NCBI GenBank assembly: GCA_050115495.1
Contig: JASFQK010000029.1
Span: 24,368 to 88,367, forward strand
Origin: Phycisphaerae bacterium
GTDB taxonomy: Bacteria; Planctomycetota; Phycisphaerae; UBA1845; Fen-1342
Reading direction: 5' to 3'
Length of the DNA: 64,000 nucleotides
In this document: piece by piece, positions 16,667-33,863 of the stretch
Layout of the letters: the number at the start of each line of letters is the position of its first letter
Numbering within the stretch: position 1 is the stretch's first letter
Translations under genes and position numbers: made by a program
The notes under the pieces: generated by a model
Databases searched by the model: none
What the model was told of the DNA's origin: nothing
The model's input: the letters and a program-made list of their open reading frames with translations, nothing else

Positions 16667-17000
16667 GCAGCTCGATTGGCTGGCGGAGCGGATTCCTGAT
16701 CACGAGCTCTCGCCCAAGGGTGGTCGCCCGCCGGTAGACACACATGAGGTGATGCAGGGCATCTTCTGGATCCTCGACAACGGCGCGAAATGGAAGGATC
16801 TACCGCGGAAGTTCGGCTCGAAGAACACCGTGCATCGCTGGTTCCAGATCTGGACGGACGCCGGCGTGTTCAAGCAGATCATGTGCGACGCCGGGTGACT
16901 GGTTGAGGAACGTGATGGCTTCAAGTTGTACGAATGTCTCATCGACAAGACATTCGCCAAGGCCCGCGGCGGCGGTGACGGCATCGGCCAGACCAAGTGC
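16600..17000 (+). mobile_element. IS5-family transposase remnant
   Basis: ATG 16647; TDEQ..GGRPP..GIFWILDNGAKWKDLP..VHRWFQIW; in-frame TGA 16896-16898 then ECLIDKTFAKARGGG; truncated; ends approximate. Confidence 0.85.
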
Positions 17001-17439
17001 TGGGTGCGGGGTATCGTCGGCTGGAACACGAGGTGGATTAGTGCCGAACGCCCATCGTTGAAGACGGATAACGGCTCGGCGCCCACGGTACGCCGGAGAA
17101 GTTGGCCGTTCTGGTCGTGGCCCTACGCATATACATGTGGCGAGCGCGGTTGGGCCGGAAGCGGTACGTGTCCGGCGGTCCTGCGCCCGGCCCGCAGGGG
17201 CGGTGTGCGCCGGCTGGCTGGGGGAACCGGCTGTCGTCCGCAGCGGGCCCGGCGCAGGGCAGCCGGACCCCGACGCGGCTTGGACCGGCTTCCGCCCGCG
17301 GCGGCGTAACCGGTTTCGCGGAGGTTTGTGCGTTACGTCAACGAACTTCGGGCGACTAGGGAAGTAGTGGAATAGGGATGAGAATGCGGTGAGTGCGGTT
17401 GCGTCCTTGGGGCCGGGCGGGGCTTGGCCAAACGAGGCG

Positions 17440-17655
17440 ATGATGATGGTGAGACGAATCAGGAAGCTGGGCTTGCGGCGGGACGTCCTGCGCAACGTGT
17501 CAACTGCAGACATGTGACGCATCGTGGCGGTCGGCGGACCACGATCGGGTACTCCGGGTCACCATACGGACAACTGCCCGCCGCCTCCGCCGCCGGGTCC
17601 ATCGCAGAATGACAGCGCATGCTACTGCATCACGACGGCCAGCCAGCTCTGCTGA
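17440..17655 (+). pseudogene. lanA: Lanthipeptide precursor A1 with in-frame TGA
   Basis: MMMVRRIRKLGLRRDVLRNVSTADM*RIVAVGG/PRSGTPGHHTDNCPPPPPPGPSQNDSACYCITTASQLC; TGA at 17515-17517. Confidence 0.8.
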
Positions 17656-17733
17656 AGCGAACGCGAACACCGTGGCTAGACCTCGCATGCCGGTCAAACA
17701 GACAACGAAGTACGGCCAGAGAAGGAGCAAGCA

Positions 17734-17979
17734 ATGGGAAGACGGATCAAGAGACTGATGCTGCGGAAAGAGGTTCTGCGCGACTTGGCACCCGGGGACA
17801 TGCGACAGGTCGTCGCGGTCGGCGGACGCGGGTCAGAGGTCGCGTGTAACGATACGACGCAGTGCTTGCCAGAACATACCATATCGTGCACGCTGTGCAC
17901 ATTCCCGTGTCCCGACGCGTCCCGCGACAGCGCCTGCTACCTGTGTAAAGGGGACGGGCAGATGTGGTGGCTCTCCTGA
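17734..17979 (+). CDS. lanA: Lanthipeptide precursor A2
   Basis: AAGGAG RBS; leader with LMLRKEVLRDL and VAVGG; 50-aa core with 7 Cys and 10 Ser/Thr. Confidence 0.85.
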   Translation: MGRRIKRLMLRKEVLRDLAPGDMRQVVAVGGRGSEVACNDTTQCLPEHTISCTLCTFPCPDASRDSACYLCKGDGQMWWLS

Positions 17980-18077
17980 GCTAGACCAGAGAGCCGGCAG
18001 CACGCACCGCAGGTGGCTCAGATAGGCGATGGGCAACATCCTGCCCGTGGCGTGCATCCGGAATTCAGGCTCATGCG

Positions 18078-20732
18078 CTAGGGAGAAGGTGCTCCCGCAG
18101 GCGAGGGAGACAGAGGCACGCTCCACTCGGCTGCCTGTGCCGGATTCCCGCATGTCTCGCAGAACTCGGCGATCCGGCGCCGGAACGCCATCCGCCGCCG
18201 ATTCGTCGGCGGGTAGACCAAGCGGAGTCTCACCCGGTCGAACAGATCGGCAGCAATCACCTTCGCTTGGTCGCACTCTCCGCGGGAGACGAGGCAGTCC
18301 AGGAGCATGGCCTCGGTCTCGGGGACGTGAAACGGCTCTTGCGGGGCTGATTCGTTCCAGATGTCCAGCGCATCGCGGAAGCACTGCTCAGCTTCCTCCC
18401 GTCTGCCCAGCGCAAGCAGCGATGCGCCATATCTGGCCGTGGCGACCGCGTACATCCTGTGCCGCGGCCCCAACAAGCGGAGGTAGACCGTAGTAACTTC
18501 TTCGTGAAGCTCCACCAATCTCGCTCGGTCGGCCGACTCGCCGCGTTCCATCTGCTCTTCGAGGAGGCCCGAGAGATTCAACAGGCTGATGGCGACGACC
18601 GGATGCACGTCTCCAAGCTGGGCGCGTCGGATGTGAAGCGCCTCGCCGTGCATCCGCTCTGCTGTGGCAAGATCGCCGAGCGCGCGATGGGCGTTCGCCA
18701 GGTAGGTGAGAATGTCCGCCCGGTCCAGCGGCCCGCCCTTTGCGCGGACATGTGTGTCCAGTGCCTGGGTGCAGTAGGACACAGCATCCGCGTACCGCTC
18801 GGCGTAGAGACTGACGTCGGCGAGATCGACCAGGCTCTGCATGATCTCCCGTCCGTGTTGGCCGGGCAAAGCGCGGCGGATCTCCAGTGCCTGGAGATGG
18901 CAGCGCTCGGCCTGCTCGCTGTCGCCGCCGCGCAACCAGGCGCTACCCAAAGCGGCCAGGCTGTCCGCCGCTTCCGCGGACTCGTCTCCCCACAGCTCAC
19001 GGCTCAAGGTGAGGGCTCGTTCGCATAGGGGGCGGGCTTCCTCCCACTGACCTGTCTCCCGCAGTACCTCGGCCAAGCCGCGGAGAGAGGCGACGTACTT
19101 CGCGGGTCCGGTTCCGAGTTCCGATTTTCGCAGGCCCACGGCTTGGCGCAGGTGCTTCTCCGACTCCGGGTACAAGCCCAGGCCGTAGTACATACGGCCG
19201 ATCGTCTCGTGGAGTGTGGCGGCGAACCGCGGCCGGTCGCGACAATCCGTCTCGACCCGCCGCGCGGCCTCGTCGAGCACTTCCCGTACGGTCAGATCGG
19301 CTCCCCGGGCGTGTTGGGGATCGATCGAGGCCAGTATGTCGTCGAGCAGGAACGACTGAACCCACTCGGTCTCTTCGAGGGCGCGGCGAGCGCGGACGGC
19401 CTCCCGCGTGGCGCGGACGGCTTGCCACGCCGCCACGGCCGAGCCCAAAGCGACAACCAGGGCTATGACGGCAGCGCTCACGGTCAGCGCCCGGTGGCGG
19501 CGAACGAACTTGCCCGCCCGCTCCCACGTCGGGCTGGGCCGATCGGGGATCGGTTGGTGGTCGAGGTGCCGGCGGATGGCGTCCGCCAGCTTGTCCACGC
19601 TCTCGAACCGTCGCGCCCGGTCAGGTTCCAGGCACTTGCACACGATCCAATCGAGGTCGCCGCGCAGAGCACGCCCCAGGCTCTCCGGCTGGAGGCTGCG
19701 CCTTCCAGCTGCCGCCGCGGCGTCGTACGGCGTGCGTTGCTCACCGGGTCGCGATGTGTCCACTCCGTTCACGGCGACAGGGCCGGCGGCTGGGCGACGC
19801 AGCCATGAAGACGAGACGGCCTTGAGGCCGCATCGCGTGCTTGGCCACGGGGGGTCTTCGAGCTTCTCACGTACGAGGTCCGCCAGCGTAGTGGCGGCGA
19901 ACGGCAGGTGACCGGTGAGGAGTTCGTAGAGAACGACGCCGAGAGAATACACATCCGTGCGAACGTCGATGGTGTCGATGTTGCCCTCGAACTGCTCCGG
20001 GGAGGCCCAGAGATACGTGCCGGCGAACTCGCCCGGGCGCGTCCGGTGACAACTGCTCAGGGCCAGTTCGCGGTTGGTGACGCGGGCGACGCCGAAGTCG
20101 ATGATCTTGGGCTCGCCGGCGTCGCCGATGAGGATGTTCGTGGGTTTCAAATCGCGGTGAATCACGCCCTTCTGATGGGCGTAGCGGATCCCGTCGCAGA
20201 CTTTGAGGAACAGCCGCAAACGCCCGGGCAGGTCCAGCGTGATGGCGTCGGCGTGGTCCACGATGGTCGTGGCGTGCTCGATGTACTCCATCGCGTAGTA
20301 GGGCAGGGCATCCGTGGGTTTACGGCTGCTCGGTCCGACGTAGTACTGCGCGATGTTCGGGTGCTTCAGCGCCGCGATGACGCGTCGCTCGCGCCAGAAC
20401 TGGTCCAGCGACTCCGGCGACACGGCTTCGCCCTTGATGATCTTCAGGGCAACGATGTGGCGCGACTCCTGCTCCATCGCGCGGTAGACGGTGCCCATAC
20501 CGCCGGTGCCGAGCTCTTCGAACAACCGGAAGCCGGCGATCGTCTCCGGCGGGCCGGGATGCAGGCGGAACCAGCGCTCAACCGCGTGCAGGATGGGCGA
20601 TGAAGCGGCGCCCTCGTCCCGAAGGTACTGCAACCTGTCCGCACGGTCGCTCCGCGGGAGCGTCTCCAACTGCGCGATCAGCTCGTGGACGCCATTCCAC
20701 TGCTCATCGGTAAGCTCTTCCACCGAGGCCAT
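18078..20732 (-). CDS. Membrane Ser/Thr protein kinase with C-terminal TPRs
   Basis: GTGGMGTVY, VALK, HRDLKPTN, DFG, SPEQ; TM segment; TPR-like repeats. Confidence 0.95.
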   Translation of the reverse strand: MASVEELTDEQWNGVHELIAQLETLPRSDRADRLQYLRDEGAASSPILHAVERWFRLHPGPPETIAGFRLFEELGTGGMGTVYRAMEQESRHIVALKIIKGEAVSPESLDQFWRERRVIAALKHPNIAQYYVGPSSRKPTDALPYYAMEYIEHATTIVDHADAITLDLPGRLRLFLKVCDGIRYAHQKGVIHRDLKPTNILIGDAGEPKIIDFGVARVTNRELALSSCHRTRPGEFAGTYLWASPEQFEGNIDTIDVRTDVYSLGVVLYELLTGHLPFAATTLADLVREKLEDPPWPSTRCGLKAVSSSWLRRPAAGPVAVNGVDTSRPGEQRTPYDAAAAAGRRSLQPESLGRALRGDLDWIVCKCLEPDRARRFESVDKLADAIRRHLDHQPIPDRPSPTWERAGKFVRRHRALTVSAAVIALVVALGSAVAAWQAVRATREAVRARRALEETEWVQSFLLDDILASIDPQHARGADLTVREVLDEAARRVETDCRDRPRFAATLHETIGRMYYGLGLYPESEKHLRQAVGLRKSELGTGPAKYVASLRGLAEVLRETGQWEEARPLCERALTLSRELWGDESAEAADSLAALGSAWLRGGDSEQAERCHLQALEIRRALPGQHGREIMQSLVDLADVSLYAERYADAVSYCTQALDTHVRAKGGPLDRADILTYLANAHRALGDLATAERMHGEALHIRRAQLGDVHPVVAISLLNLSGLLEEQMERGESADRARLVELHEEVTTVYLRLLGPRHRMYAVATARYGASLLALGRREEAEQCFRDALDIWNESAPQEPFHVPETEAMLLDCLVSRGECDQAKVIAADLFDRVRLRLVYPPTNRRRMAFRRRIAEFCETCGNPAQAAEWSVPLSPSPAGAPSP

Positions 20733-20742
20733 GGCCCTTACC

Positions 20743-21363
20743 TCACGCTCCTCGCGCCAGCGGCGGCCTACCGAGCTTTTCGTTAAACAGCAGCTTGGCT
20801 CTTTCCTGAAGGCGACGGACGCTTGTTCGCGGCTCTCCCAGGAAGCGGGCGATCTCCGTGCAATTGAGTCCGGCGTAGAGCCAGTACCTGCTAAACTCTG
20901 CCAATTCGGGGCCGTCGCCCTGTCGCTTCTCCAGCTCGTCTATCACAAGCTGCACGTCGACCGCCAGGTCCGGGTCCTGCCGGACAAGCCTGGGGAGTTC
21001 GGCGAATCGCGACTCATCAAGTGGGACAGTCGCGATGCGGCGACGGCGTTTCCGCGCGTGGTCGATCAGAACGTGGCGCATCACACTGTACATCGAGGCG
21101 CAGAAGTGCTTGCGGTTCTCCCAGGTCATTTCCTTCCAGGTCGCCTTCCCGCCGCCGGCCCGCCGCAGGGCGCTGTCGACGAGATCGGTCGTTTGTATCG
21201 ACTGAGCGTTGTCCTCGCCAGCCAGTAGTCCGTGGGCCATGCGGTTGAGTTCATCCATCAGCTCCGATAGGTCGCTCCAGGACACGGGCCCATCTTCGTC
21301 CCGGGGGCTGTTGTCGTTCACAGGGGGCTTCTCGTTGTGTTCGGCTTCGGCATCCTGATTCAT
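20743..21363 (-). CDS. ECF sigma factor, TIGR02999-like
   Basis: DELNRMAHGLL, SIQTTDLV, MRHVLIDHARKR; GGAGGAGG RBS; directly upstream of the kinase. Confidence 0.88.
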   Translation of the reverse strand: MNQDAEAEHNEKPPVNDNSPRDEDGPVSWSDLSELMDELNRMAHGLLAGEDNAQSIQTTDLVDSALRRAGGGKATWKEMTWENRKHFCASMYSVMRHVLIDHARKRRRRIATVPLDESRFAELPRLVRQDPDLAVDVQLVIDELEKRQGDGPELAEFSRYWLYAGLNCTEIARFLGEPRTSVRRLQERAKLLFNEKLGRPPLARGA

Positions 21364-21763
21364 AGTCTCCTCCTCCATGACTGCGTGCGCGTCCCCCGCA
21401 CAGGGGATGTCGCGACACTGAAACCATCTCCAACGCCAGAAGCAACGGCGTGATCGCTCACGCAACAGACAGCCACGCTTGGGCAGTAGGGTGATGCGTA
21501 AGCCTCACTTCCGGACTTTGGCGCGACTTGGCCGTTTCCGTCGCCATTGTACGCATATTGGTATGGGGTGCGGAAGCGCATCACGTGGATTGGGCACCGG
21601 AGAAAGGCGGACGCGGACCGTGCGTACGCCAGCCCGTAGCGACCAAGGCACGTCCGTGACACGGCTGGCGTCGCGATCGCGGGTCTTGCCTTCTGGGTGT
21701 CGGCTGTCGCGGGCCACTCAGCGGTGCCCGCACCAAGGTGTTGAACAGAACAAGGAGAGACAC

Positions 21764-22006
21764 ATGAAGGGACTGAGGAAGCTGGCGTTGCCGCCGAGGG
21801 AACGGCTCAGGAACCTCCAGAGCGCGGAGACGCGCTGGGTGCGTGGCGGCGCGCCGCCGGACCTCGCGCACCAAGTCGCAGGAGGGCCTCAGCCAAACGA
21901 CCAGATTATCCACACCGGTGGCTGCGTGGTGAGCACTAACCCCCAGATGTGCTCATATCATTACGAATACGGCCCGCCGCAATGCGTGACCGGAGCGAGC
22001 TGCTAG
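21764..22006 (+). CDS. lanA: Lanthipeptide precursor A3
   Basis: AAGGAG RBS; leader MKGLRKLALPPRERLRNLQSAETRWVRGG; core with 4 Cys. Confidence 0.85.
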   Translation: MKGLRKLALPPRERLRNLQSAETRWVRGGAPPDLAHQVAGGPQPNDQIIHTGGCVVSTNPQMCSYHYEYGPPQCVTGASC

Positions 22007-22197
22007 AGCGGGAACGCACAAGCGCTGTTGTCGGTGATGGCCCGCACGGTGCTTCGCGAGCAGATGCAGGCAAGAGAGACGTGTAGCTTGCATGATGTGC
22101 TGGAGTCCTCGGTAGTCGCCGTGCGCGCCGCGTGCAGTGTCGGCTGCGTAGCGGACAAACACAGCACGCACACGTATTGCTGAGAAAGGAGATGGTC

Positions 22198-22425
22198 ATG
22201 AAAGGGCTGAGAAGGCTGACGTTGCCGCCAAGAGAGCGGCTCAGGAACCTGCGAAGCGAGGACACGCGCTGGGTACGTGGTGGTGTGCAGCATGGCGTCG
22301 GAAGGGACCCACACCCCGTCGATGAGTGGGGCGGTGTTATCAACACGAGACTGACCTGTTGGTGCCCAGACACGCAGAGCTGCTGTTCGTCGGGTGGCTA
22401 CGAGCACTACGGGCCAACTGGCTAG
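22198..22425 (+). CDS. lanA: Lanthipeptide precursor A4
   Basis: AAGGAG RBS; leader nearly identical to A3; core with TCWCPDTQSCCSS. Confidence 0.85.
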   Translation: MKGLRRLTLPPRERLRNLRSEDTRWVRGGVQHGVGRDPHPVDEWGGVINTRLTCWCPDTQSCCSSGGYEHYGPTG

Positions 22426-22574
22426 AGTCCACTGTTGCTCGCACTGCACGGCAGCCGGCTTCGTTGTTGACGGGGCTGCAACGTCGCTGAGCACGCGAGC
22501 GTCGCACGAGGATGAACGGTCCGGCGGCGGGCTGTCCGCCGCCGGGTTGGGACTCGGGGGTGAATTCCTGTATA

Positions 22575-23939
22575 ATGGCAATGTCAACGGTGGGCTCAAT
22601 TGTGCACTTGGGGCGAGAGCAGGCTATTTGGCGCGCGATCCTGACGGGGCCGACAGCAGAGCGGGCCCAGGTGGTGGTCGAACTCATCGCGGACCGACTG
22701 CGGGGCGTGGCCGCAGATTGGATCCCGGACGGCCTCCCCGACGAATACCGTGGCTCCATAGTCAACAGCCCCGGCCTGGCGAGTGGACGGGCCGGGCTGG
22801 CCGTCTTCTATGGCTATCTGGCCCGTACCTGGTCGCGGAAGCGGGACCGGGAACGGTCGCTACAACTCCTGGAGGAGGCCATCGATCTGCTGGCCGTCAC
22901 GCACACACGCGCGTCCCTGTACGCCGGCTATGCGGGCACGGCGTGGGTCGCCGAGCACCTGCGTCGATTGCTGCTCGGAGCCGAAGGGGAGGATCCGAAC
23001 GGGGCCATCGACGAGGCGCTGCTGAAGCATCTCGACCGTTCGCCCTGGCCGGATGACTACGACTTGGTGAACGGACTCGTGGGATTCGGCGTGTATGCGC
23101 TGGAACGCCTGCCGCTGCCCGCCGCCGTGGAGTGTCTGACCCGCATCGTGGAGCGGCTGCACGAGATGGCCGAGCACACGCCGCCCGGTGTCACGTGGCT
23201 GTCTTCTCCCACACTACTGCCGGCACCGCAGCGTGCCCTTGCCCCCGGTGGATACTACAACCTCGGTGTAGCACACGGCATACCAGGCGTGATCGCTCTG
23301 CTGGCGTGGGCGTGCGCGGCCGACGTGTCTGCAGAGAAGGCGAGACCGCTGTTGGAGGGCGCGGTCGAGTGGCTTCTGGCGCAGAGGTTGCCAGAAATTG
23401 CCGGCTCCACGTTCCCGCTCTGGGCAGCGCCTGGGATCGACGTCCGGCCGGCGAGGCTGGCGTGGTGCTACGGCGATGCAGGCATCGCCGCTGCGCTGCT
23501 GTCGGCGGCAAGGTGCGTTGGCAATAGCACCTGGGAGGCCGAGGCGGTGGCCATCGCCCGCCGGGCAGCGCGACGCCGATTCGAGGATTCCGGCGTGGTG
23601 GACGTCGGCCTCTGCCACGGCGCCGCCGGTCTGGGACATATCTTCAACCGTCTCTACCAGGCCACCGGCGACGGCGAACTGGGCGGCGCGGCACGTCAAT
23701 GGTTCACGCATAGCCTGACGATGCGACGGCCGAACGAGGGAATAGCGGGCTACCTGGCGTCGATGCGTCCGCCCGATGGCGAGGAGAGATGGGTGGCCGA
23801 TCCGTGCTTTCTCACGGGTGCGGCGGGGATTGGGCTGGCACTGCTGGCGGCGATCACGCCGGTTGAACCCGCCTGGGACAGGGTGCTACTCGTGTCGGTG
23901 CCGCCGACGCGGTCACAGAGAGGCGCGGACCGTGGATGA
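22575..23939 (+). CDS. lanC: Lanthionine cyclase LanC
   Basis: YDLVNG, LGVAHGIPG, WCYGDAG, LCHGAAG motifs; start uncertain. Confidence 0.95.
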   Translation: MAMSTVGSIVHLGREQAIWRAILTGPTAERAQVVVELIADRLRGVAADWIPDGLPDEYRGSIVNSPGLASGRAGLAVFYGYLARTWSRKRDRERSLQLLEEAIDLLAVTHTRASLYAGYAGTAWVAEHLRRLLLGAEGEDPNGAIDEALLKHLDRSPWPDDYDLVNGLVGFGVYALERLPLPAAVECLTRIVERLHEMAEHTPPGVTWLSSPTLLPAPQRALAPGGYYNLGVAHGIPGVIALLAWACAADVSAEKARPLLEGAVEWLLAQRLPEIAGSTFPLWAAPGIDVRPARLAWCYGDAGIAAALLSAARCVGNSTWEAEAVAIARRAARRRFEDSGVVDVGLCHGAAGLGHIFNRLYQATGDGELGGAARQWFTHSLTMRRPNEGIAGYLASMRPPDGEERWVADPCFLTGAAGIGLALLAAITPVEPAWDRVLLVSVPPTRSQRGADRG

Positions 23940-26900
23940 GGCTGGTGACAACCGAGCCGACGGCGAGGAGTTGGTTCCGTCGGGCTTCTTCGTGCTGCGG
24001 ACGCCGCTCTTGCCGTTCGACACGCTGCGGGTTTGGAGTGCAGACCTGGAGGCGCCGCGCGCGTTGGGAGACGCCGCCCGTCTAGAGGCGGCGTTGGCGA
24101 CCGACCGGGCGCGACTGCGGGAGCGGTTACGAGATATCCTGGGACTGCCGGAGTTCAACGAGGCGCTCTTCGTCGCCGCCCCCAGTCTCTGGAAGCAACT
24201 GTCGGACTGGCGGGACGATCCGGACAGCAAGCGGGGCCGGAAGGTCGAGCACCCACTCGTGGGGTACGTGGTGCGGGCGGCGGCGCGGCCGACACCGTTC
24301 GGCTTGTTCGCCGGCTGCGCTGTGGGTGTGCTGGGGTCGAAAACCGTCTTGGACGTGCCACCGCGTGACCGCTACAGGCGGCACACGCGCCTGGACATGG
24401 GCTACCTGCTCAAACTGACGAACCGGCTGGAGAGCGATCCGGAGATCCGCCGGGGTCTGCCGTACAACCCCAATTCGAGCCTGTACCGCGCCGCGGGGCG
24501 GTTGCGCTACGCCGAAGCCGAGCTCAAGGACGGCACGCGCTCGTACCAGTTGGTGGCACTCGACGAAGACGACTATCTGCGAGCGACGCTGGCGGCAGCG
24601 CGAAGCGGGGCGCAACCTGGCACGCTGGCCGAGGGTCTGGTGTCGGCGGACGGGGAGGTCACGCTCGCCGAGGCTGAGGCGTACATCGGGAATGACGTGA
24701 TCGGCAGCCAGATCCTGGTTTCCGAGCTGGCGCCGGCGGTCACCGGGCCCGAGCCGATGCATGCCCTGCTGAGCACGTTGCGCGAGTTACCCGTGGCGGC
24801 GGACGTGGTGGACGCCCTGGAGCGTGTGCACGCTGCCGTCGAGTCGCTCGACGACGGCGGGCTGGGCGCCGACCCGGAACGCTATCGCGCCGTCGTCCGA
24901 GCCGTGGAGAAGTTGCCGGCCGATGTGGAACCGAACCGGCTGTTCCAGGTGGACATGACGAAGCCGACAGCGGATGCCGCCCTGTCAGACGCTGTGGTGC
25001 GCGAACTGGTCCGTGGTGTCCATACGTTGCACAGGCTCAGTCCCTCGCGAAAACGGCTGGACAAGATGGCCGATTTTCGCAGCGCGTTCACCGATCGCTA
25101 CGGCGACCGCGAGGTCCCGCTGGTCGAGGCACTGGACGAGGAGATCGGTATCGGTTTCGAGCGCTCGACGGCGCCAACGGCCGAGGCTTCACCGCTGCTG
25201 GCGGGGCTGTCGCTGCCGGACACCAGCGACGACGCGATGCGCTGGACCGCACGCGACATCCTTCTGCTCCACAAACTGGAGGAGGTTCTCGCGACAGGGG
25301 CGACCGAGATCGAGCTGACCCCCAGTGACCTCGATCGCCTCGGGCAAACGGACCGGTTGCCGTTGCCGGATGCCTTCGCCGTGACGGCCATGCTGGCCTC
25401 GCCGTCGCCGGCAGCGCTGGCCGAGGGAGACTTCCGGCTGCTGTTGCGCAATGTGTCCGGCCCATCGGGCGGCGTCTTGCTGGGAAGATTCTGTCATTGC
25501 GACGAGACGCTCCGCCGCCTCGTCGAGCAGCACGTACGGGCGGAGGAAGTGCTGCAACCGGACGCGGTTTTCGCGGAGATCGTGCACTTGCCGGAGGGTC
25601 GCCTGGGGAACATCCTCTGTCGGCCGGTGCTCCGCGACTACGAGATTCCCTTTCTGGGGCGCTCGGGGGCGTCGCGGGAGAGGCAACTGCCCGTGACCGA
25701 TCTGCTGGTCACGGTGATCGGGGACCGGGTTGTGCTGCGTTCGGCCCGTCTGGACCGCGAGGTCGTGCCCCGACTGACGACCGCCCACAACTTCACGGCG
25801 CGCAGCATGGGCACGTACCGCTTCCTGTGCACGCTGCAGTTGCAGGGCGTCGCGACGGGCTTGTCGTGGGCCTGGGGGCCCTTGGAGAGCGCCCGGTATC
25901 TGCCGCGCGTATCCTGTGGTCGGCTGGTCCTGGCCCGCGCCCGCTGGCTGGCGGACTACAAGGAGATTGAGGCCCTCCAGCAGGCGGCCCGCGGAGCGGC
26001 CCAGTTTCAGGCCGTTCAAAAATGGCGCACGCGTCGCAAGCTGCCACGGCTCGTCGCGCTGGCGGAGGCGGACAACGAGCTCGAGGTCGACTTCGACAAT
26101 GTCCTGAGCATCGAGGCGTTCCTGCACTCGGCGAGCACGTCGATACGGCGGTGGCGGACGGCGGCCCGCCTGGTAGAGATATTCCCTGCTCCGGACGAGC
26201 TATGCGCCGCCGGGCCGGAGGGACGTTTCACGCACGAGCTCATCGTGCCCTTCACGCGGGCGCGACAGCCGGTCTCGCGACGGCTGCCGCCGCGAGTCCA
26301 GGTTTCCTCGTGGCAGCAGCGAACGTTGGTGCCGGGGTCGGAGTGGCTGGACCTGCGGATCTACACCGGGAGCTCGACGGCGGACCGCGTGCTCCGCGAT
26401 GTCGTTGGTCCGTTCGTGCGTAACCACATGCAGGCGGGTCTCATCGATCGCTGGTTCTTCATCCGCTACAGCGATCCGGAGTGGCACCTGCGCCTGCGCC
26501 TGCACGGCGAGCCGGCGACGCTCCAGGCCAGTGTGCTCCCGGCGCTCAACGAGGCCATCGGAGCACTGATCGGCGCGGGATGTGCCTGGCGCATGCGTGT
26601 TGACACGTATGAGCGTGAGGTCGAGCGTTACGGTGGACTCGACGGTGTTGTTCTCGCCGAACGACTTTTCCACGCCGACAGCGAGGCCGTGCAGGCCATC
26701 GTCGAGCTCCTGGACGGTGAGGAGGGTGCCGACGCCCGGTGGCGTCTGGCGGTGCGCGGCATGGACATGCTGCTCACCGACGTCGGCCTCGATCTGCCCC
26801 GGAAGCTCGACCTGGCCAAGCGCGCCTACCGGGCGCTGTCGCGCGAGTTCGGCGTGGATACACCTCGCTTCCGGACGGAACTCAGGAAACGGTTCGACCC

Positions 26901-27234
26901 ACTGCGTCCCGAACTCACCGGCCTGCTGGATCCGGCCGGCGATGAGAGCAGCCCGCTCGCTCCGGCCTTGCGGGTGCTCCGGCGGCGCTCGGTGGCATTG
27001 GAGCCAGTCGCGGCGGCACTGCAAGCGCTGGCTGAAGACCGGCGCCTGACACGGTCGCTGGAGGACATGGCCTCGAGCTACGTGCACATGCACGTCAACC
27101 GCATGCTGCGCTCGGCGCAGCGGGCCCAGGAGATGGTGCTCTACGACTACCTCGTGCGGCTGTACGAGATCTTCGGCCACACACGGCAGCCGGGTCCTCG
27201 ACCTGGCCGTCGCGTTGACCTGCCGATCGGCTAG
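23932..27234 (+). CDS. lanB: Full-length lanthipeptide dehydratase LanB
   Basis: [26 protein letters not shown]; elimination domain [25 protein letters not shown]; overlaps lanC stop. Confidence 0.96.
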
Positions 27235-27312
27235 GATACTCACCAGGGCTGGAGCCCCAATGGTGATCCACTGCCCGCTGCACGTTTGATTGCTACGGGA
27301 GGCAAGTCTGGC

Positions 27313-28863
27313 GTGGCCAAGCGGCGCGACAGCCTGGTTCGCCCGGCGGTGCGCGAACGAATCGCCACCGCGGATCATCGCGGGGGTGACGTCCTGCGTC
27401 TCGATCCCGCATCCACGATGCGGCGGGCGCGGTGGCTGATCCTGCTGCTGCTCGCCGTGTCCATGGCCGGCCTCGTGACCGTGCGTATTCCCGAGTATGC
27501 GTGGGGGCCGGCGGTGGTCTGGCTCGAGCATCATGACGTGCTGGCCGCGGAAGCGGGAATGGTGTCCCGCGTGGACGTGTGCCCCGGCCAGCAGGTCCGC
27601 CGGGGTGATGTCCTCGTCCGTTTCTGCGACGAGCGGGAGGTGGCTGAGCTCAGGCGGATCGAGCAGGCGTACGAGCTGCAACTGGTCAACACCCTGCGTG
27701 ATCCCCTGGACCAGGCGGCGTGCCGGGAGCTGACCGCCCTGCGCGCCCAGCGAACACTGGCCGAAGAGCTCGTGCGGGAGAAGCGCGTCATCGCCCGCTA
27801 CGAGGGCACCGTAGGCGACGTGCGCGTTCAGCCGGGCCAATGCGTGGCGATGGGCGACATCCTCGTCACGCTGCTCCCGCCGGACGCCCCCACGGCCGAG
27901 GCGGACGATCCGCGCGTCATCGCCCTGCTGCCCGCCCACCATGCTCCGATGCTGAAGACGGGGCTGGAGCTGCGACTTGAGCCGTCCGGGCACCGGTACA
28001 CGTATGCCCAGGCCCGGGTGTGTGACGTGGGAAGCGAGGCGCTCGGACCGACGGCAATCCAGCGCTACCTGGGCCAGACCCTCGCCGACTCACTCGCACT
28101 CCAGGGCCCGTACGTAAAGGTCGAAGCGCACCTGGACCGCCGCACTGCGCTGGAAAAGGACGGAGAGACCTATAGCTTCGTGCACGGCATGCAGGGTACG
28201 GCTCGCGTGAAGATGCACTCCGCGCCCGCGGTGTGCGCGCTGGTTCCGCCGCTACGGCAAGTGATCGATGGGGGTGAAACGCCGATCGGCACGGCCCTGT
28301 TCGCAGGAGCAGCCGCAGCCGCGCTTTTCTTGGCCGTCTGGGTGATCCGCCGTCACGTGGTGAGGCTGATCGACCGCGTACGTCGCCCGTCCGTTCCCTT
28401 CATCGCCCAGGAAGGTCCCGACGACGGCGCGGCGGCCTGTCTGGCGATGGTGCTCGCGTTGCGCGGACAGCAGGTGACGCCAGCGGCGGTTGCAGCCCGC
28501 GTCGGTGCCCGGCGTGGTGCGGTCGTCGATTGGTATGAGGCGGCGTATCGTTACGGGCTCGCCTGCCGGGAATCGCGCATCGGCGTCGGCAGCACGCCTC
28601 TCGGACGCGGCCAGCCCGACGTCGGCCTGCTGCGGCAGTTGCCACCGGGGGCGCTGGTCGAGTTGCAGGGCGAGCTTGCGGTTCTCGAACGCGTCACCGC
28701 CACCGGCGTGAGTGTGCTGGACCCGCGCCGCGGGCGCCTGCACCTACCGCTGGGGCTGTTCGCCGGGATGTTCCGGCGGCGGGTGTGGACGTTTGAACCC
28801 CTCACGATAGACGCAGAGGAGCTGCTCGAGGTGACAGAAGACCAAACGACGGAGGAGGCCTAG
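27313..28863 (+). CDS. HlyD-like membrane fusion protein fused to a degenerate C39-like domain
   Basis: TM, GQQVRRGDVLV and GQCVAMGDILV lipoyl half-motifs; second TM; C-terminal VPFIAQEGPDDGAAACLAMVL. Confidence 0.85.
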   Translation: MAKRRDSLVRPAVRERIATADHRGGDVLRLDPASTMRRARWLILLLLAVSMAGLVTVRIPEYAWGPAVVWLEHHDVLAAEAGMVSRVDVCPGQQVRRGDVLVRFCDEREVAELRRIEQAYELQLVNTLRDPLDQAACRELTALRAQRTLAEELVREKRVIARYEGTVGDVRVQPGQCVAMGDILVTLLPPDAPTAEADDPRVIALLPAHHAPMLKTGLELRLEPSGHRYTYAQARVCDVGSEALGPTAIQRYLGQTLADSLALQGPYVKVEAHLDRRTALEKDGETYSFVHGMQGTARVKMHSAPAVCALVPPLRQVIDGGETPIGTALFAGAAAAALFLAVWVIRRHVVRLIDRVRRPSVPFIAQEGPDDGAAACLAMVLALRGQQVTPAAVAARVGARRGAVVDWYEAAYRYGLACRESRIGVGSTPLGRGQPDVGLLRQLPPGALVELQGELAVLERVTATGVSVLDPRRGRLHLPLGLFAGMFRRRVWTFEPLTIDAEELLEVTEDQTTEEA

Positions 28864-28891
28864 CGCCTCAGGCGCCGACCGGAGAACCAAC

Positions 28892-31300
28892 GTGCCGCTC
28901 CGCAAGAAGGGCATACCGTTCGTCCCGCAAATGACCGAGACCGACTGCGGCCCGGCCTGCTTGGCCATGGTGCTCGGCTACCACGGCCGCCAGGTAAGTC
29001 TGGCCGAGGTCCGCGAGGCGGTTGGCAGCGGCCCGGCCTCCGTGTACGAGCTGAAGGAGGCAGCCCGCGCGTACGGTCTGCGCGGTCGCGCCGTTTCGTT
29101 CGAGCAGATCGAGACGTTCCGGTTCGTGAAGCCCGGCTCCATCGTCCACATCTACATCTATTCCCCGCTCGGCTCGCGGCCGCACTTCGTGGTGTTCGAG
29201 GGCCTGGTGGACAACACGGTGCGCATCGTCGACCCGGCGGAAGGTCCGCTCAGTCGACCGATCGAGGGATTCGATCGCGAGTTCGCCGGCACCGTACTGA
29301 TGCTCGAGCCCACCGCAGGCTTCCAGCCGGGGCGGCGGCCACCCGCCCGGGCATGGCCTGCCCTGAAGCGAGCCATCGGCGATGCCCGTGTCTTGTCGCC
29401 GATCATCTTCGCATCATTGCTGGTTCAGGTCTTCGCCCTCGGCCTGCCGCTGCTGACGGGCCTGCTCGTCGAACGCGTCATCCCACGTGGCGACAGGTTC
29501 ATGCTGGCCTGCCTGGCGGCGGGCCTGTCCATTGTCGTGGTCTTCAACCTGGTCACCTCCCTGGTCCGGGCGCAACTGCTCGTGTATCTGCGTACACACG
29601 TCGACACACGGCTTATGCACCGCTTCGTCGAGCATCTGCTGAGCCTGCCGTACGCCTTCTTCCAGGAACGGCCGACCGGCGATCTCGTCATGCGGCTCAA
29701 CAGCCACACCAACATCCGCGAGGTGGTGACTTCGGGCGTTCTCTCCGGCGTGCTCGACGGCACGATGGTGATCGGCTACTTTATCCTGCTGTTCATCATT
29801 AGTTGGCCCATGGCCGTAACGGTCACGATTCTGGCCGTGCTGCACGTGACCCTCTTCGTCCTGGCCGGCCGCAAGTACGAGCTGCTGGCCAAGCAGGAAC
29901 TGGGTGCCCAGGCGGAATCCCAAGGCTACGGCGTGCAAATGGTCGCGGGTATCGAGACGCTCAAGGCCGCGGGCGCCGAGCCCGACGCCTGTGAACGTTG
30001 GTCCAACCTATTCGTCGACGTGCTGAACATCTCGGTGCGGCGCGGCCGATTGAGCGCCGTCGTGGAGTCGTTGCTGGGCGGGCTGCGCATGGCGTCGCCG
30101 CTCCTGGTGCTGTGCGTCGGCGGCTGGCTGGTGATCAACGGCCAGTTGAACCTGGGCGTGATGCTCGCCATCAGCGCCCTGGCCGGCAGGTTGCTCGTCC
30201 CACTCACCGGCCTGGTCAGCATCGCTCTGCAATTCCGGACGGTTCGGGGCTACCTCGATCGCCTCGACGACGTTCTGGAGACGGAGCCGGAGCAGGTGAT
30301 GCACTCGGTGCCGGCGCAGCACACGCTGGAGGGCCGGGTGGCGCTGGAGCACGTGTCGTTCCGTTACCGCACGCACGGTCCGCTGGTGGTCGACGACGTC
30401 TCGCTCGAACTGCACCCCGGTCAGCACGTCGCGATCGTTGGCCGGTCGGGATCGGGCAAGTCGACCGTGGCCCGCCTGCTGGTCGGCCTCTACACGCCGG
30501 CGGAGGGCCGCATTCTCTACGACGGCGTGGACCTGGAGGAGCTGCACTATCGGGCGGTGCGCCGGCAGTTGGGGCTGGTGCCACAGGATCCGTACCTCTT
30601 CGGCACGACCATCCGCAACAACATCGCCCTGGTCGATCCGACTATCGCGCTGGCCGACGTGCAGGAAGCGGCACGGCTGGCCCACATCCACGAAGACATC
30701 GAGACACTACCGCTCCAGTACGACACACCGTTGCCGGATCGCGGTGCTGCGCTGTCGGGCGGCCAGCGGCAGCGGCTCGCCCTGGCCCGCGCCCTGGTGC
30801 ACAAGCCGAGGATTCTCGTGCTGGACGAGGCCACCAGCGACCTGGACACCATCACGGAGCGGGCCATTCAACAAAACCTGCGCAACCTGGGCTGTACGGT
30901 GATCATCATCGCCCATCGGCTGAGCACGATTGTCGACGCGGACGTCATCTACGTCATGAAGAACGGACGCATCGACGAGTCCGGCACGCATGAGCAGCTC
31001 GTCGCCCGCGGCGGTGAGTACGCCGCGCTGGTGTTCGCCCAGCAGGACGCCGGCGACGGCTCGCGGGCGGTCCGGCCACGACCGCACCGGCTGACCACGC
31101 GTGTACGCGGCCGGGGCAGCGTCACCGTGCATGGGGATGGCGAGTCTCCTGCGGGAATGCGGGTGTACGTGCTGGCCAACCCCGATTCAGGCTGGCGCTT
31201 CGACCACTGGGAAGGGGATCTGGCTGACCGATTGAATCCGGCCGGCGTGGACATGGACAAAGACCGAACGGTGACCGCCGTCTTCACGCAGCCGGGCTAG
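28892..31300 (+). CDS. lanT: Peptidase-containing ABC exporter (C39-TMD-NBD) with extra C-terminal domain
   Basis: QMTETDCGPACLAM, HFVV, GRSGSGKS, LSGGQRQR, LDEATS, IAHRL. Confidence 0.95.
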   Translation: MPLRKKGIPFVPQMTETDCGPACLAMVLGYHGRQVSLAEVREAVGSGPASVYELKEAARAYGLRGRAVSFEQIETFRFVKPGSIVHIYIYSPLGSRPHFVVFEGLVDNTVRIVDPAEGPLSRPIEGFDREFAGTVLMLEPTAGFQPGRRPPARAWPALKRAIGDARVLSPIIFASLLVQVFALGLPLLTGLLVERVIPRGDRFMLACLAAGLSIVVVFNLVTSLVRAQLLVYLRTHVDTRLMHRFVEHLLSLPYAFFQERPTGDLVMRLNSHTNIREVVTSGVLSGVLDGTMVIGYFILLFIISWPMAVTVTILAVLHVTLFVLAGRKYELLAKQELGAQAESQGYGVQMVAGIETLKAAGAEPDACERWSNLFVDVLNISVRRGRLSAVVESLLGGLRMASPLLVLCVGGWLVINGQLNLGVMLAISALAGRLLVPLTGLVSIALQFRTVRGYLDRLDDVLETEPEQVMHSVPAQHTLEGRVALEHVSFRYRTHGPLVVDDVSLELHPGQHVAIVGRSGSGKSTVARLLVGLYTPAEGRILYDGVDLEELHYRAVRRQLGLVPQDPYLFGTTIRNNIALVDPTIALADVQEAARLAHIHEDIETLPLQYDTPLPDRGAALSGGQRQRLALARALVHKPRILVLDEATSDLDTITERAIQQNLRNLGCTVIIIAHRLSTIVDADVIYVMKNGRIDESGTHEQLVARGGEYAALVFAQQDAGDGSRAVRPRPHRLTTRVRGRGSVTVHGDGESPAGMRVYVLANPDSGWRFDHWEGDLADRLNPAGVDMDKDRTVTAVFTQPG

Positions 31301-31340
31301 GCCGATTGTGGGCGACCGTCGGCGAAGAACGGGACGCGTC

Positions 31341-32333
31341 ATGTTGAGCATGCATACATCATGGACTCGGCCGCTGCTCGTTGCGGTTCTGGCCATCTGG
31401 CCGCAGAGCGTTCTCGAAGCCACTCCGCGTGATCCACATTCGTGCACGCCGGCGCGGCTCGGCGATGTTTCCGCGGCCCCTGGCGAAGTCGCCCTGCCCG
31501 GCGTCTCGGCGCCGGACGAGCAAAACGTACAGCGTGGTTACATCGGTATTGTGTTGCCCCGCCGGGCGCTCGAGGTTACCGCCGAACTTCAACTGCGTCT
31601 CAAAGCTGTCCACGTCGATCTCGGCGACCAGCTTGACCCGAAAGACCCGCACACGCTGATCGCCGAGCTGGACACGGTCATGATCGAGCACGAGCGGAAG
31701 ATCGCCGAAGAATCAGTGAACTTGGCGAGGCTGCAGGCCGGCATTGCGGAGGCAAAGGCGAACGCGGCGCGGGAGTTGCGTAAGATCATTCGAGAGCTCC
31801 GCGATCGCCTCGAAGCCTCCAAATGGGAGGTCTACGAATCCGATCTCCAAGTGGCCATCGCTGAGGCGGAGGTCAGGAGGGCAGAAACCGCGGTTGAACA
31901 ACAGGTGGCCCGCATCCAACAGCTCAACCACGAATTGGCCTGCGGCGCCATACGAGCACCCTCCGAGGAAGACGCCCCACGGTTCTACATCGTGGCCGCG
32001 CGCTACCGGAACCCGGGCGACCTGGTCGGTCCCGGCATCCCCATCGTCCGCCTGATCAGCGAGGAGTCGTTCATCCGTTTCGCCGTCGAACCACCGGATG
32101 CGGCGCAGCTGAAAGAGGGTGACACCGTCCAGGTGGACGTCCCGGACCTGTCCCGGACATTCTCCGCCCGGGTCGAGCGCATCGCCCCAGAGGTGCACGC
32201 CGCCTCCGGCCGGGTTGCCATCGAAGCGGGCTTCGTCGCCCCGGCGTTGCCGGGGGCATCGAAGGCACGTGCCCCGACCACCGTCAAGGCAGGCATGGTC
32301 GTGCGGGTCCACGTGCACTGCGCCCGCCCCTGA
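31341..32333 (+). CDS. Efflux periplasmic adaptor subunit
   Basis: Coiled hairpin between lipoyl half-motifs, ARVERIAPEV, KAGMVVRV. Confidence 0.85.
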   Translation: MLSMHTSWTRPLLVAVLAIWPQSVLEATPRDPHSCTPARLGDVSAAPGEVALPGVSAPDEQNVQRGYIGIVLPRRALEVTAELQLRLKAVHVDLGDQLDPKDPHTLIAELDTVMIEHERKIAEESVNLARLQAGIAEAKANAARELRKIIRELRDRLEASKWEVYESDLQVAIAEAEVRRAETAVEQQVARIQQLNHELACGAIRAPSEEDAPRFYIVAARYRNPGDLVGPGIPIVRLISEESFIRFAVEPPDAAQLKEGDTVQVDVPDLSRTFSARVERIAPEVHAASGRVAIEAGFVAPALPGASKARAPTTVKAGMVVRVHVHCARP

Positions 32334-32435
32334 AGGGCCGCATGCGGACCCGCGAGCGCAAGTCTCCGGCGGCAGATCTCACGCAAGGCAATAGCTCCCG
32401 GCAATCCGCCGCGCCGTCCCGAAAAATGGTCCCGC

Positions 32436-32559
32436 TCAGCCATGTCCTTGATGCTCGAGAGACCGGGTATTCAGCGAATCGCTGCCCCCGTCCCCGCACC
32501 GCACAACGACAGATCGGAGGCTGAGCGATGACGCCCACGCAGGCGCGCGGCCGCGCGTG
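32436..32559 (+). repeat. Diverged direct repeat, copy 2 (5' stub of the 14500 gene)
   Basis: Encodes MTPTQARGRAC then soon stops; identical core at 32523-32549. Confidence 0.85.
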
Positions 32560-32615
32560 TGGGCCGGCCTGAACGGCACTCTCGGTGACATGCTGACCAT
32601 TCGGCGAGGATGTCG

Positions 32616-33863
32616 CTATGAAGCCCCGGGCGGGTCGAACGACACGATTACGGAGGAAGGAAGCACGGGGTACTCCACGCGGCAACGAAAGACGTCGAAC
32701 CGCTCTCCATCCCAGCCGAGCCGCTCGAAGACGTACCGCCCTAGCTCCTCGTATCGCGTGTAATCGGGCGTAGACAGGGCGGACGGCCCCTTGCCCACGT
32801 AGTCGATCGACTCGCGCGGCTCCAGATGCAGGCTCTTATCGCTCAAGTGTGGAGCGGTCACTCCACCCATGTAGTCGGCACAGGTGAATACGCGCGGCGT
32901 GAACTGCCCGCGCATCTCCTCGTGTACGAGCACGTCGAGAAGCAGCGTCTCGCAGGGCACGCGAATCGTGGTGCCCCCCCCGAAGGGCCGCGCCGCGCCA
33001 TCTTCGCCACGACGTATAGCCCCACCAGGAGCCAGATGCCCCTCGAAGCAGGTGATCGCAGCCTTCTTCCCAAGCCCGTCACTCACGAATTCAGCGCAGA
33101 GCACGCCGGGACATGCCTGGACAATCCGATGCTCCGGCAACGGCTGGCTGCAGAACTCTCGCAGCATGGCGATTCCAGTGCCACCGTCCGGCACCGGGTC
33201 GATGGGCTCTCGTCGGATGTCTTTGATCTCGCCATCTGCACCGAATGTGCAGTACTGGGCGAAGAGCAGGGGGCTATCCGGCCGCAGGCGGCGCAGAGAG
33301 ATGAACCCCTTCACGTGCACGTAGTCCATCAGCCGCGTGTCACTCGCCGGACGAAAGATCACGGTACTGATCAGAGCTTTCGCATGCACCCCGAAGATCA
33401 GTCTCTGGCCGCGGAACACCGTCCGCCGTTGCTGCTGGATGATCTGGTCGGCGTCCGCCGTACCCGCCAGCGAACTGATCATGGAGTCGAACGCCGTGCG
33501 GTCGCCCGCGTGGGACTCAACGACCTTCTGGAATTCCTCGCCCGCTTTGGCCGCCGCCTCGATGACCTCGCGCGGGACCCCACACCGGGCGGCGGCCTGG
33601 AGGAAGTGCGTCATGTTGGCCGGCCCCGGGACGTACGGCGCAACGGAAAAAGGGCTGTTCGCAACGATGATCTTGGCCAGCTTCCAGCTCAGCTTCTTGT
33701 CGAGCTTCAATGCCCGCTGAAGCTGGGCCGCCTTGACCAGCGTGCCTCGCGGCGGGACCGCCGCGACGACCGCCGCCAGCGTGCTCCGGATGCGTTGGAG
33801 GACGGTCTCTACGTCCTGGAGAAACGGGCCACCTGCCTCCATGGATGAGCTTTGCCGGGTCAT
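32616..33863 (-). CDS. ~420-aa hypothetical protein, paralog 1, putative regulator
   Basis: HTH-like AAQLQRALKLDKKLSWKL; shared HAGDRTAFDSM and RFDVFRCRVEYP motifs. Confidence 0.85.
   Translation of the reverse strand: MTRQSSSMEAGGPFLQDVETVLQRIRSTLAAVVAAVPPRGTLVKAAQLQRALKLDKKLSWKLAKIIVANSPFSVAPYVPGPANMTHFLQAAARCGVPREVIEAAAKAGEEFQKVVESHAGDRTAFDSMISSLAGTADADQIIQQQRRTVFRGQRLIFGVHAKALISTVIFRPASDTRLMDYVHVKGFISLRRLRPDSPLLFAQYCTFGADGEIKDIRREPIDPVPDGGTGIAMLREFCSQPLPEHRIVQACPGVLCAEFVSDGLGKKAAITCFEGHLAPGGAIRRGEDGAARPFGGGTTIRVPCETLLLDVLVHEEMRGQFTPRVFTCADYMGGVTAPHLSDKSLHLEPRESIDYVGKGPSALSTPDYTRYEELGRYVFERLGWDGERFDVFRCRVEYPVLPSSVIVSFDPPGAS

Follow-up and report, generated by a model that had tools for sequence, protein, structure and literature searches.

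We identify, in a 64,000-nucleotide stretch of a Phycisphaerae genome (the window), what is very probably a class I lanthipeptide biosynthetic gene cluster of the Gly-Gly-leader subfamily (leaders of the LxLxKx5L type), in which a LanC cyclase, a LanB dehydratase, a C39 peptidase/ABC exporter, and two HlyD-family adaptors follow four small precursor genes, A1 to A4. The window lies on contig C29; the genome has 85 contigs, totals 5.97 Mb, and is an estimated 92% complete. Gene content, gene order, catalytic residues, the leader family, and the presence of only four such leader genes in the genome are established directly, and the chemical steps, the cleavage site, and the regulatory link are predicted. 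The features by which we assign the cluster to class I are a full-length LanB, a stand-alone LanC, and adjacent precursors that consist of a leader and a core with Ser, Thr, and Cys. This cluster type has been described already, and only the peptide (core) sequences are new here.

The five large genes run head to tail on the + strand from 22512 to 32333, separated by gaps of 7-52 nucleotides or overlapping. Pfam identifies them as LanC (22512-23939; LANC_like, E 9.9e-41), LanB (23932-27234, with the frame open from 23776; Lant_dehydr_N plus Lant_dehydr_C), a 525-residue HlyD-family membrane-fusion adaptor (27286-28863; HlyD_3), a C39 peptidase/ABC exporter of the PCAT/AMS type (28892-31300; Peptidase_C39, ABC_membrane, and ABC_tran), and a second membrane-fusion adaptor of the same family with 341 residues (31308-32333; HlyD_3). 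Upstream of lanC, and within 5 kb of it, the four small + strand genes form two tandem pairs, A1/A2 (17440-17655 and 17734-17979) and A3/A4 (21764-22006 and 22192-22425). The original prediction, made from the sequence alone, had proposed both this operon and a class I pathway in which one enzyme pair serves several precursors, and each of these proposals holds: the five genes stand in a row, LanB and LanC are full length and keep the catalytic residues that were checked, and the genome has a single LanB gene for three intact precursors.

LanB matches positions 3-647 of the 649 in Lant_dehydr_N (E 1.5e-166) and all 255 positions of Lant_dehydr_C (1-255; E 3.4e-67). We compared it in phmmer alignments with NisB (4wd9) at nine residues that we take to be catalytic (R87, T89, D121, D299, R464, R786, E823, R826, and H961); eight are identical, and the ninth, R464, falls outside the NisB alignment, near a GRF motif that LanB has in common with 9g04 and MibB. 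LanB relatives align only from residue 52-68 of the open reading frame (ORF) onward, which makes GTG 23932 (overlapping with the stop of LanC) or TTG 23971 the likely start. In LanC, the motifs AHG (His255), WCYG (Cys319), and CHG (Cys368-His369) align with their counterparts in NisC and MadC.

The exporter matches PCAT1 (4ry2) over residues 5-711 (E 6.6e-108), and its nearest NCBIfam model is TIGR03796 (E 4.5e-177). Cys19, His98, and Asp114 of its Peptidase_C39 domain (E 1.5e-24) align with the catalytic residues of LahT150 (E 3e-16) and PCAT1, and its ATPase contains Walker A (GSGKST), signature (LSGGQ), and Walker B (LVLDEAT) motifs; all of the features that define PCAT/AMS transporters (i.e., a C39 domain with Cys and His, a six-helix membrane domain, and nucleotide-binding domain motifs) are present. 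The first adaptor scores 26.2 bits against HlyD_3, over the cut-off, and matches the NHLP-type HlyD model TIGR03794 below its cut-off (7e-12); homologues of it adjoin the ABC gene in 6/54 related loci. The second scores 29.5 bits against HlyD_3 and matches RND_mfp below the cut-off (1e-11). Although the exporter resembles PCAT1, LahT, and ComA in its full-length PCAT1 match and its complete C39 Cys/His/Asp, it differs from them in an extra C-terminal domain of 80 residues, a divergent InlB B-repeat (PF18998; residues 734-800, window 31091-31300) placed after the ATPase. This domain is absent from the 54 related loci, and in a single region search its other matches are unrelated large repeat proteins, none an ABC transporter (4 hits among 270 candidates, including the protein itself).

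The leaders of the four precursors are 29-33 residues long (33 in A1, 31 in A2, 29 in A3), contain 8-9 Lys/Arg and 2-3 Asp/Glu each, and terminate in Gly-Gly at the same alignment column; those of A3 and A4 both end in RWVRGG. A profile of the four leaders was searched against 108,996 six-frame segments covering the whole genome and retrieved its own four genes at E 4e-11 to 1e-16, followed by a next match at E 0.12. The A2 leader is an exact LxLxKx5L (L8, L10, K12, L18), and A1 deviates from this motif by an Arg in place of the Lys and a Val in place of the last Leu. An AAGGAG ribosome-binding site stands 6-8 nucleotides ahead of the ATG in A2, A3, and A4, the site of A1 being weaker; for A4, the start may be ATG 22192 or ATG 22198. 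Several further claims made on first sight of the DNA are borne out here, namely that the four small genes carry basic leaders ending in Gly-Gly, that A2 fits the LxLxKx5L motif, and that such leaders are paired with a C39 exporter. The implied integrity of all four genes is not, as A1 has a TGA inside its leader.

The cores of A1, A2, A3, and A4 comprise 38, 50, 51, and 46 residues with 4, 7, 4, and 4 Cys, respectively, and 6-10 Ser plus Thr per core. These lengths agree with the 38-51 residues originally given, but the accompanying description as Cys/Ser/Thr-rich does not suit A3 and A4, in which Ser, Thr, and Cys make up just 0.20-0.24 of the core and the Cys are confined to the C-terminal half (all four within the last 27 residues in A3). 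Nor are the cores mutually unrelated, as had been claimed: the local similarity of the A1 and A2 cores (HT..C....P.P...DSACY) is equalled by 9/1000 shuffles and that of the A3 and A4 cores by 61/1000, compared with 196-475 of 1000 for the remaining four pairs. Judged by these similarities, the members of each tandem pair, A1/A2 and A3/A4, are paralogues that have diverged.

The cores are unrecognised, as first proposed, with no named match in NCBIfam, word-index, or HMMER searches. A word-index search of a 5.8-billion-protein set with A2 and A3 returned the window's own proteins alone. When a profile built from A3, A4, and A2 was run in a full HMMER search, 15 proteins matched with E of 1e-3 or lower, three of them the window's own; two more, P0010 and P0013 (366 and 411 residues, with five matching stretches each), were left out of the closer comparison. 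The other ten are Gly-Gly-leader peptides, and none of the 9 protein clusters looked up for the matches has a name except "hypothetical protein". Similarity extends into the core in only two of them: P0004 is similar to A3 (E 1e-12) and P0005 to A4 (E 3.9e-8) over leader and core alike, with the common core parts GGP..PND for A3/P0004 and GVGRDP and TRLxC for A4/P0005. Each of the two is encoded on one Logan contig of 3167 nucleotides, presumably the same one, and the A3/A4 pair therefore probably exists in one other organism. A further match from another source, P0009 (168 residues), contains two successive leader-plus-core units in a single frame (KRLRLNKETIRELKES..GG followed by a core, twice) and could reflect two precursors fused in tandem or an error in gene calling.

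We propose the following pathway from these components. A2, A3, and A4 would be translated, and A1 would be cut short at the TGA in its leader. The common basic leader would dock on LanB, which is predicted to glutamylate core Ser and Thr residues with Glu-tRNA(Glu) and then to eliminate glutamate, leaving dehydro-amino acids. LanC, a putative zinc enzyme, would add Cys thiols to these to form thioether rings, up to 4 in A3 and A4 and up to 7 in A2. The exporter would then cleave the peptide behind the conserved Gly-Gly with its C39 domain and release it with the help of the two HlyD adaptors. Activation of the cluster may depend on a sigma factor and a membrane Ser/Thr kinase encoded between the two precursor pairs.

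The closest described clusters are those of Walker et al. (2020; BMC Genomics, PMC7268733), whose available text reports LxLxKx5L leaders in Bacteroidetes, many of them ending in Gly-Gly and often with a C39 protease in the cluster. Within the portions of the literature that could be searched, the motif string turned up in this paper only, and its main text has 0 occurrences of "Planctomycet". So far as the available text goes, these clusters share with ours a separate LanB and LanC, a leader ending in Gly-Gly, and a cluster C39 protease; their motif is exact in A2 and near in A1, A3, and A4. They differ from the present cluster in that ours has a Phycisphaerae host, a PP insertion and an Arg in the A3/A4 motif, and new cores. 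In viridisin from Thalassomonas viridans (PMC9680876, available text), one VdsC/VdsB pair has been shown to modify double-glycine-leader precursors encoded in an operon with VdsA1-A3, and the same source groups viridisin with thalassomonasin, Ped15.1/15.2 of Pedobacter lusitanus, and pinensin; a review cites the cleavage of PedA15.2 by LahT150 (PMC12328550, in the part available). According to what is available of the viridisin report, that system and ours are alike in being class I, in having a Gram-negative host and lanC before lanB, and in having several Gly-Gly-leader precursors per LanC/LanB pair. Compared by description, the present cluster also has a pair of HlyD adaptors, an additional C-terminal domain on the exporter, and the embedded sigma factor and kinase; its cores, at 38-51 residues, are longer than those of the viridisin group, and in A3 and A4 they start with a stretch free of Cys.

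Relative to nisin, the residues for LanB glutamylation and elimination and the zinc and acid-base motifs of LanC are kept (NisB, 4wd9; NisC, 2g02), whereas the sequences are distant (E 1.2e-32 for NisB and 4.3e-8 for NisC) and the FxLD-type leader, NisP-type protease, and NisT are lacking, with the C39 exporter predicted to remove the leader instead. Prochlorosins are made by a class II LanM enzyme (ProcM) from tens of ProcA precursors scattered through the genome. Our cluster resembles them in having one modifying system, a conserved Gly-Gly-ending leader, diverse cores, and a C39 exporter, and departs from them in having LanB plus LanC and four precursors only, all inside the cluster. The original prediction of a prochlorosin-like library is overstated, since only four leader genes exist in the 92%-complete genome, all of them in the cluster and one of them interrupted. 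The novelty that it implied for a class I system with Gly-Gly leaders and several precursors does not stand either: such systems are described in the available text of PMC7268733 and PMC9680876, and the combination recurs beside LanB relatives in other phyla.

Our understanding of class I systems is accordingly unchanged with respect to leader type, C39 exporter, and the layout of several precursors per enzyme pair, all of which have been described. What the cluster adds is a class I lanthipeptide pathway in good condition from an uncultured wetland planctomycete of the Phycisphaerae, a class with few cultured members. Planctomycete genome papers mention lanthipeptide clusters, in such text of theirs as is available, and no title found in the literature names a characterised lanthipeptide from Phycisphaerae. 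With essentially no relatives, the three intact cores are fair targets for heterologous expression. Smaller leads are a nonsense TGA in an organism that decodes selenocysteine (Sec), the added domain of the exporter, the embedded sigma factor and kinase, and a LanC-LanB fusion in a relative.

Several observations weigh against the reading as a Gly-Gly-leader lanthipeptide cluster. The leaders of A3 and A4 fit LxLxKx5L only with a one-residue insertion (PP) and with Arg in place of Lys, and both have Thr at position -7 before the Gly-Gly, where Leu or Met is usual. None of the four peptides matches an NCBIfam model with E of 0.1 or lower, and a search of the cluster revealed neither an immunity gene nor a LanP or outer-membrane factor. 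One precursor is broken: position 26 of the A1 leader is an in-frame TGA (17515-17517), across from CGA (Arg) in A2. The internal Gly-Gly sites of A3 and A4 are alternative candidate cleavage points beside the first Gly-Gly. No sigma factor is found near any of the 54 related LanB loci, a kinase is found only weakly near 5/54, and a comparison upstream of A1-A4, lanC, and the sigma gene revealed no convincing common promoter motif. Finally, RNA is represented by three 151-nucleotide contigs (17553-17703, 19748-19898, and 20271-20421) from one wetland metatranscriptome, identical to the A1 3' end and adjoining intergenic region and, in two cases, to the kinase gene, with none on the lanCB-exporter operon.

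Four other explanations of parts of the cluster were considered. The A1 leader matches the profile (E 4e-11) in the portion ahead of the TGA, and the codon differs from CGA by a single C-to-T change. In our main reading A1 is most likely a nonsense pseudogene, which would leave three intact precursors; we hold this with very high confidence. A contig of the probable source run spans this stretch at ~20x with zero differing letters; the run and the assembly are not independent, but the TGA is evidently not an isolated assembly slip. The unchanged TGA also speaks for a rival reading in which it is read as Sec or read through and all four precursors are made. The genome decodes Sec, having SelA (E 2.6e-132), a SelB wing domain, SelD, and one good tRNA-Sec on contig C24, and its SelD gene itself contains one in-frame TGA, at the position of the active site (...AAG[TGA]AAK). 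A 7-bp hairpin with a GGUC-containing loop starts 6 nucleotides after the A1 TGA. However, the RNA downstream of the TGA folds with z = +0.96 (171/200 shuffles fold at least as well), no Rfam selenocysteine insertion sequence (SECIS) family matches in 17000-22600 even at E up to 5, and the GGUC lies within the conserved AVGG codons of the leader end, which A2 has too. The TGA moreover replaces an Arg of a leader that would be discarded, in the gene with the weakest ribosome-binding site, and neither the genome leader profile nor the HMMER search supplied an A1 orthologue for a test of conservation. We regard decoding of the A1 TGA as extremely improbable. The broken A1 might alternatively mark the first visible step in the decay of a silent or decaying accessory island. 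This would accord with the sparse occurrence of LanB around the host (3/60 relatives in the same order, 0/6 in the same genus, and 1/36 in the same family, with the host genome not counted) and with the lack of RNA contigs over the enzyme genes. The five large genes are nevertheless open and full length with their catalytic residues present, the three intact precursors have good ribosome-binding sites, and missing RNA contigs prove nothing: in the RNA run 3/30 bins are covered, each by a single 151-nucleotide contig, and the uncovered parts are uninformative. The RNA contigs themselves may be a weak hint of transcription or DNA carry-over, and a third run, of DNA, contains scattered identical pieces. 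A silent or decaying island, in our judgment, is decidedly unlikely.

For A3 and A4, the conservation with P0004 and P0005 spans the Cys-free stretch after the first Gly-Gly, which raises the idea of a bipartite core: the N-terminal 17-24 residues would be a second leader or spacer, an internal Gly-Gly would be the site of its removal, with the C39 domain or some other protease making the cut, and the mature peptides would be the last 27-29 residues only. Additional Gly-Gly pairs do occur at suitable places (core positions 11-12 and 23-24 in A3, 16-17 in A4), all Cys lie beyond the N-terminal segment, and this segment is kept in the sole relatives. Yet it is the first Gly-Gly that aligns with the leader end across the family, P0005 lacks an internal Gly-Gly, and the conservation of the segment is equally compatible with a role in the mature peptide; we consider a bipartite core, and processing of this kind, somewhat unlikely, and cleavage after the first Gly-Gly is the reading we keep. 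Opinion is more evenly divided on the genes between the precursor pairs, an extracytoplasmic function (ECF)-type sigma factor (20743-21465, - strand) directly upstream of a Ser/Thr kinase with tetratricopeptide repeats (TPR; 18078-20732, - strand), which we take as candidate regulator and candidate sensor, respectively; neither gene was listed in the original prediction. Given that related loci have neither partner consistently, the regulatory link is drawn from position, from which the pair may be a regulator of the cluster. There is about an even chance that it is instead an unrelated passenger and that the cluster is regulated otherwise. The kinases near 5 related loci have 29-34% identity, typical of any kinase domain, no promoter-like motif is common to the precursors, lanC, and the sigma gene apart from a 10-base string upstream of A3 and A4, and planctomycete genomes have many such pairs (see the available text of PMC7826278). 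Against this, cluster genes flank the pair on either side, a 298-nucleotide divergent intergenic region lies between it and A3, and there is a precedent in the control of the class I lantibiotic microbisporicin by the ECF sigma factor MibX (PMC4973701, in the part available). A stronger version, that the two proteins are a dedicated switch (a TPR-sensed signal leading to phosphorylation of the sigma factor and a burst of transcription) and that the products are new scaffolds with a functional Cys-free N-terminal segment, seems unlikely to us. If true, it would place lanthipeptide production under a kinase-activated ECF sigma factor, unlike the LanRK or anti-sigma schemes known so far; we came upon no described case of such control of a lanthipeptide cluster, no targeted literature search having been made.

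The kinase matches Pkinase (5.6e-43) and, through its C-terminal repeats, TPR_12 (1.7e-35), and its translation contains one apparent membrane-spanning stretch. The sigma factor falls in PF07638 (Sigma70_ECF, 1.5e-10, over the cut-off) and matches TIGR02999 below the cut-off (2.2e-16). ECF sigma factors adjoining Ser/Thr kinases are an established class, comprising ECF43 and related groups (PMC7826278, available text), and the two genes here show the sigma-kinase adjacency of that class, the one feature compared. Scanning 17000-33000 for promoters and terminators gave one site resembling the former and three resembling the latter, a yield not above that of shuffled sequence. The 10-base string, GTGTCGGCTG, lies at ~21691-21700 and ~22132-22141, ~65-55 nucleotides before the A3 and A4 starts (74 and 62 nucleotides from the ends of the compared upstream stretches), and could either be left over from the tandem duplication or act as a promoter element for both genes.

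The host had been called a probable planctomycete, and relatedness of the TrpD encoded in the window agrees and narrows this to the class Phycisphaerae: of the 29 loci returned for TrpD, three from Phycisphaerales/Phycisphaerae metagenome-assembled genomes have 64-66% identity to it, and the remaining 26 do not exceed 48%. The G+C content of the cluster (0.64-0.69) is not distinct from the rest of the window, and no island boundary could be set, the same-genus genomes being too divergent. The upstream neighbour gene has a match in 1/5 same-genus genomes, at 27% identity. The downstream neighbour (32616-33863, - strand) encodes a 415-residue protein from a multi-copy family outside Pfam; it is matched 2-6 times in each of the 5 same-genus genomes, at 24-44% identity. 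Elsewhere in the host genome (G000), the genes of the Sec machinery lie at C6:152414-153544 (SelA), C13:90699-90830 (SelB), C36:5956-6891 (SelD), and C24:83297-83392 (tRNA-Sec), and nothing in the genome scored above the cut-off for the formate dehydrogenase alpha subunit. A second "tRNA-SeC" and two long "tRNA-Glu(ctc)" called by ARAGORN were rejected as false positives with poor folds in G+C-rich DNA.

Relatives of LanB occur at 48 loci among species-representative genomes, with 32-56% identity over long matches. Most are from Acidobacteriota (Thermoanaerobaculia), and the others come from Myxococcota, Actinomycetota, Paenibacillus, Gemmatimonadota, Verrucomicrobiota, and one Rubripirellula. 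In a FastTree phylogeny of 43 LanB sequences, limited to loci with about 850 or more aligned residues, the four sequences of the host order group together (support 89, not starred) and neighbour Archangium and Thermoanaerobaculia clades, with the Rubripirellula LanB placed elsewhere. Of the related loci, 25/54 have a LanC and 17/54 a C39-ABC exporter, at 26-59% identity. The strict leader pattern KKLxLxKETLxxL...GG retrieves 15 peptides from 10/49 LanB-related loci, including four in L029 and three in L041, and a weaker leader profile adds L001, L003, L005, L025, and L028 (three in L028). This type of Gly-Gly leader accompanies relatives of LanB in Acidobacteriota, Myxococcota, Actinomycetota, and Paenibacillus. 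Beside the LanB of the Phycisphaerae genomes G011, G040, and G057, the leader profile, a loose pattern, and ORF reading found no precursors; these may lie elsewhere in the genome or have other leaders.

Two of the related loci have unusual proteins. One from G057, a genome of the same order, encodes a LanC-like N-terminus followed by LanB in a single frame of 1540 residues (L084, 4195-8817, - strand), an apparent LanC-LanB fusion, unlike the window, in which LanC and LanB are separate genes overlapping in different frames. The other, L045 from an uncultured proteobacterium, has a Gly-Gly-leader peptide (~8215) beside a distant LanB, with a core composed of SAWPTGFNCPDSPA twice and then GGYGGGW repeats.

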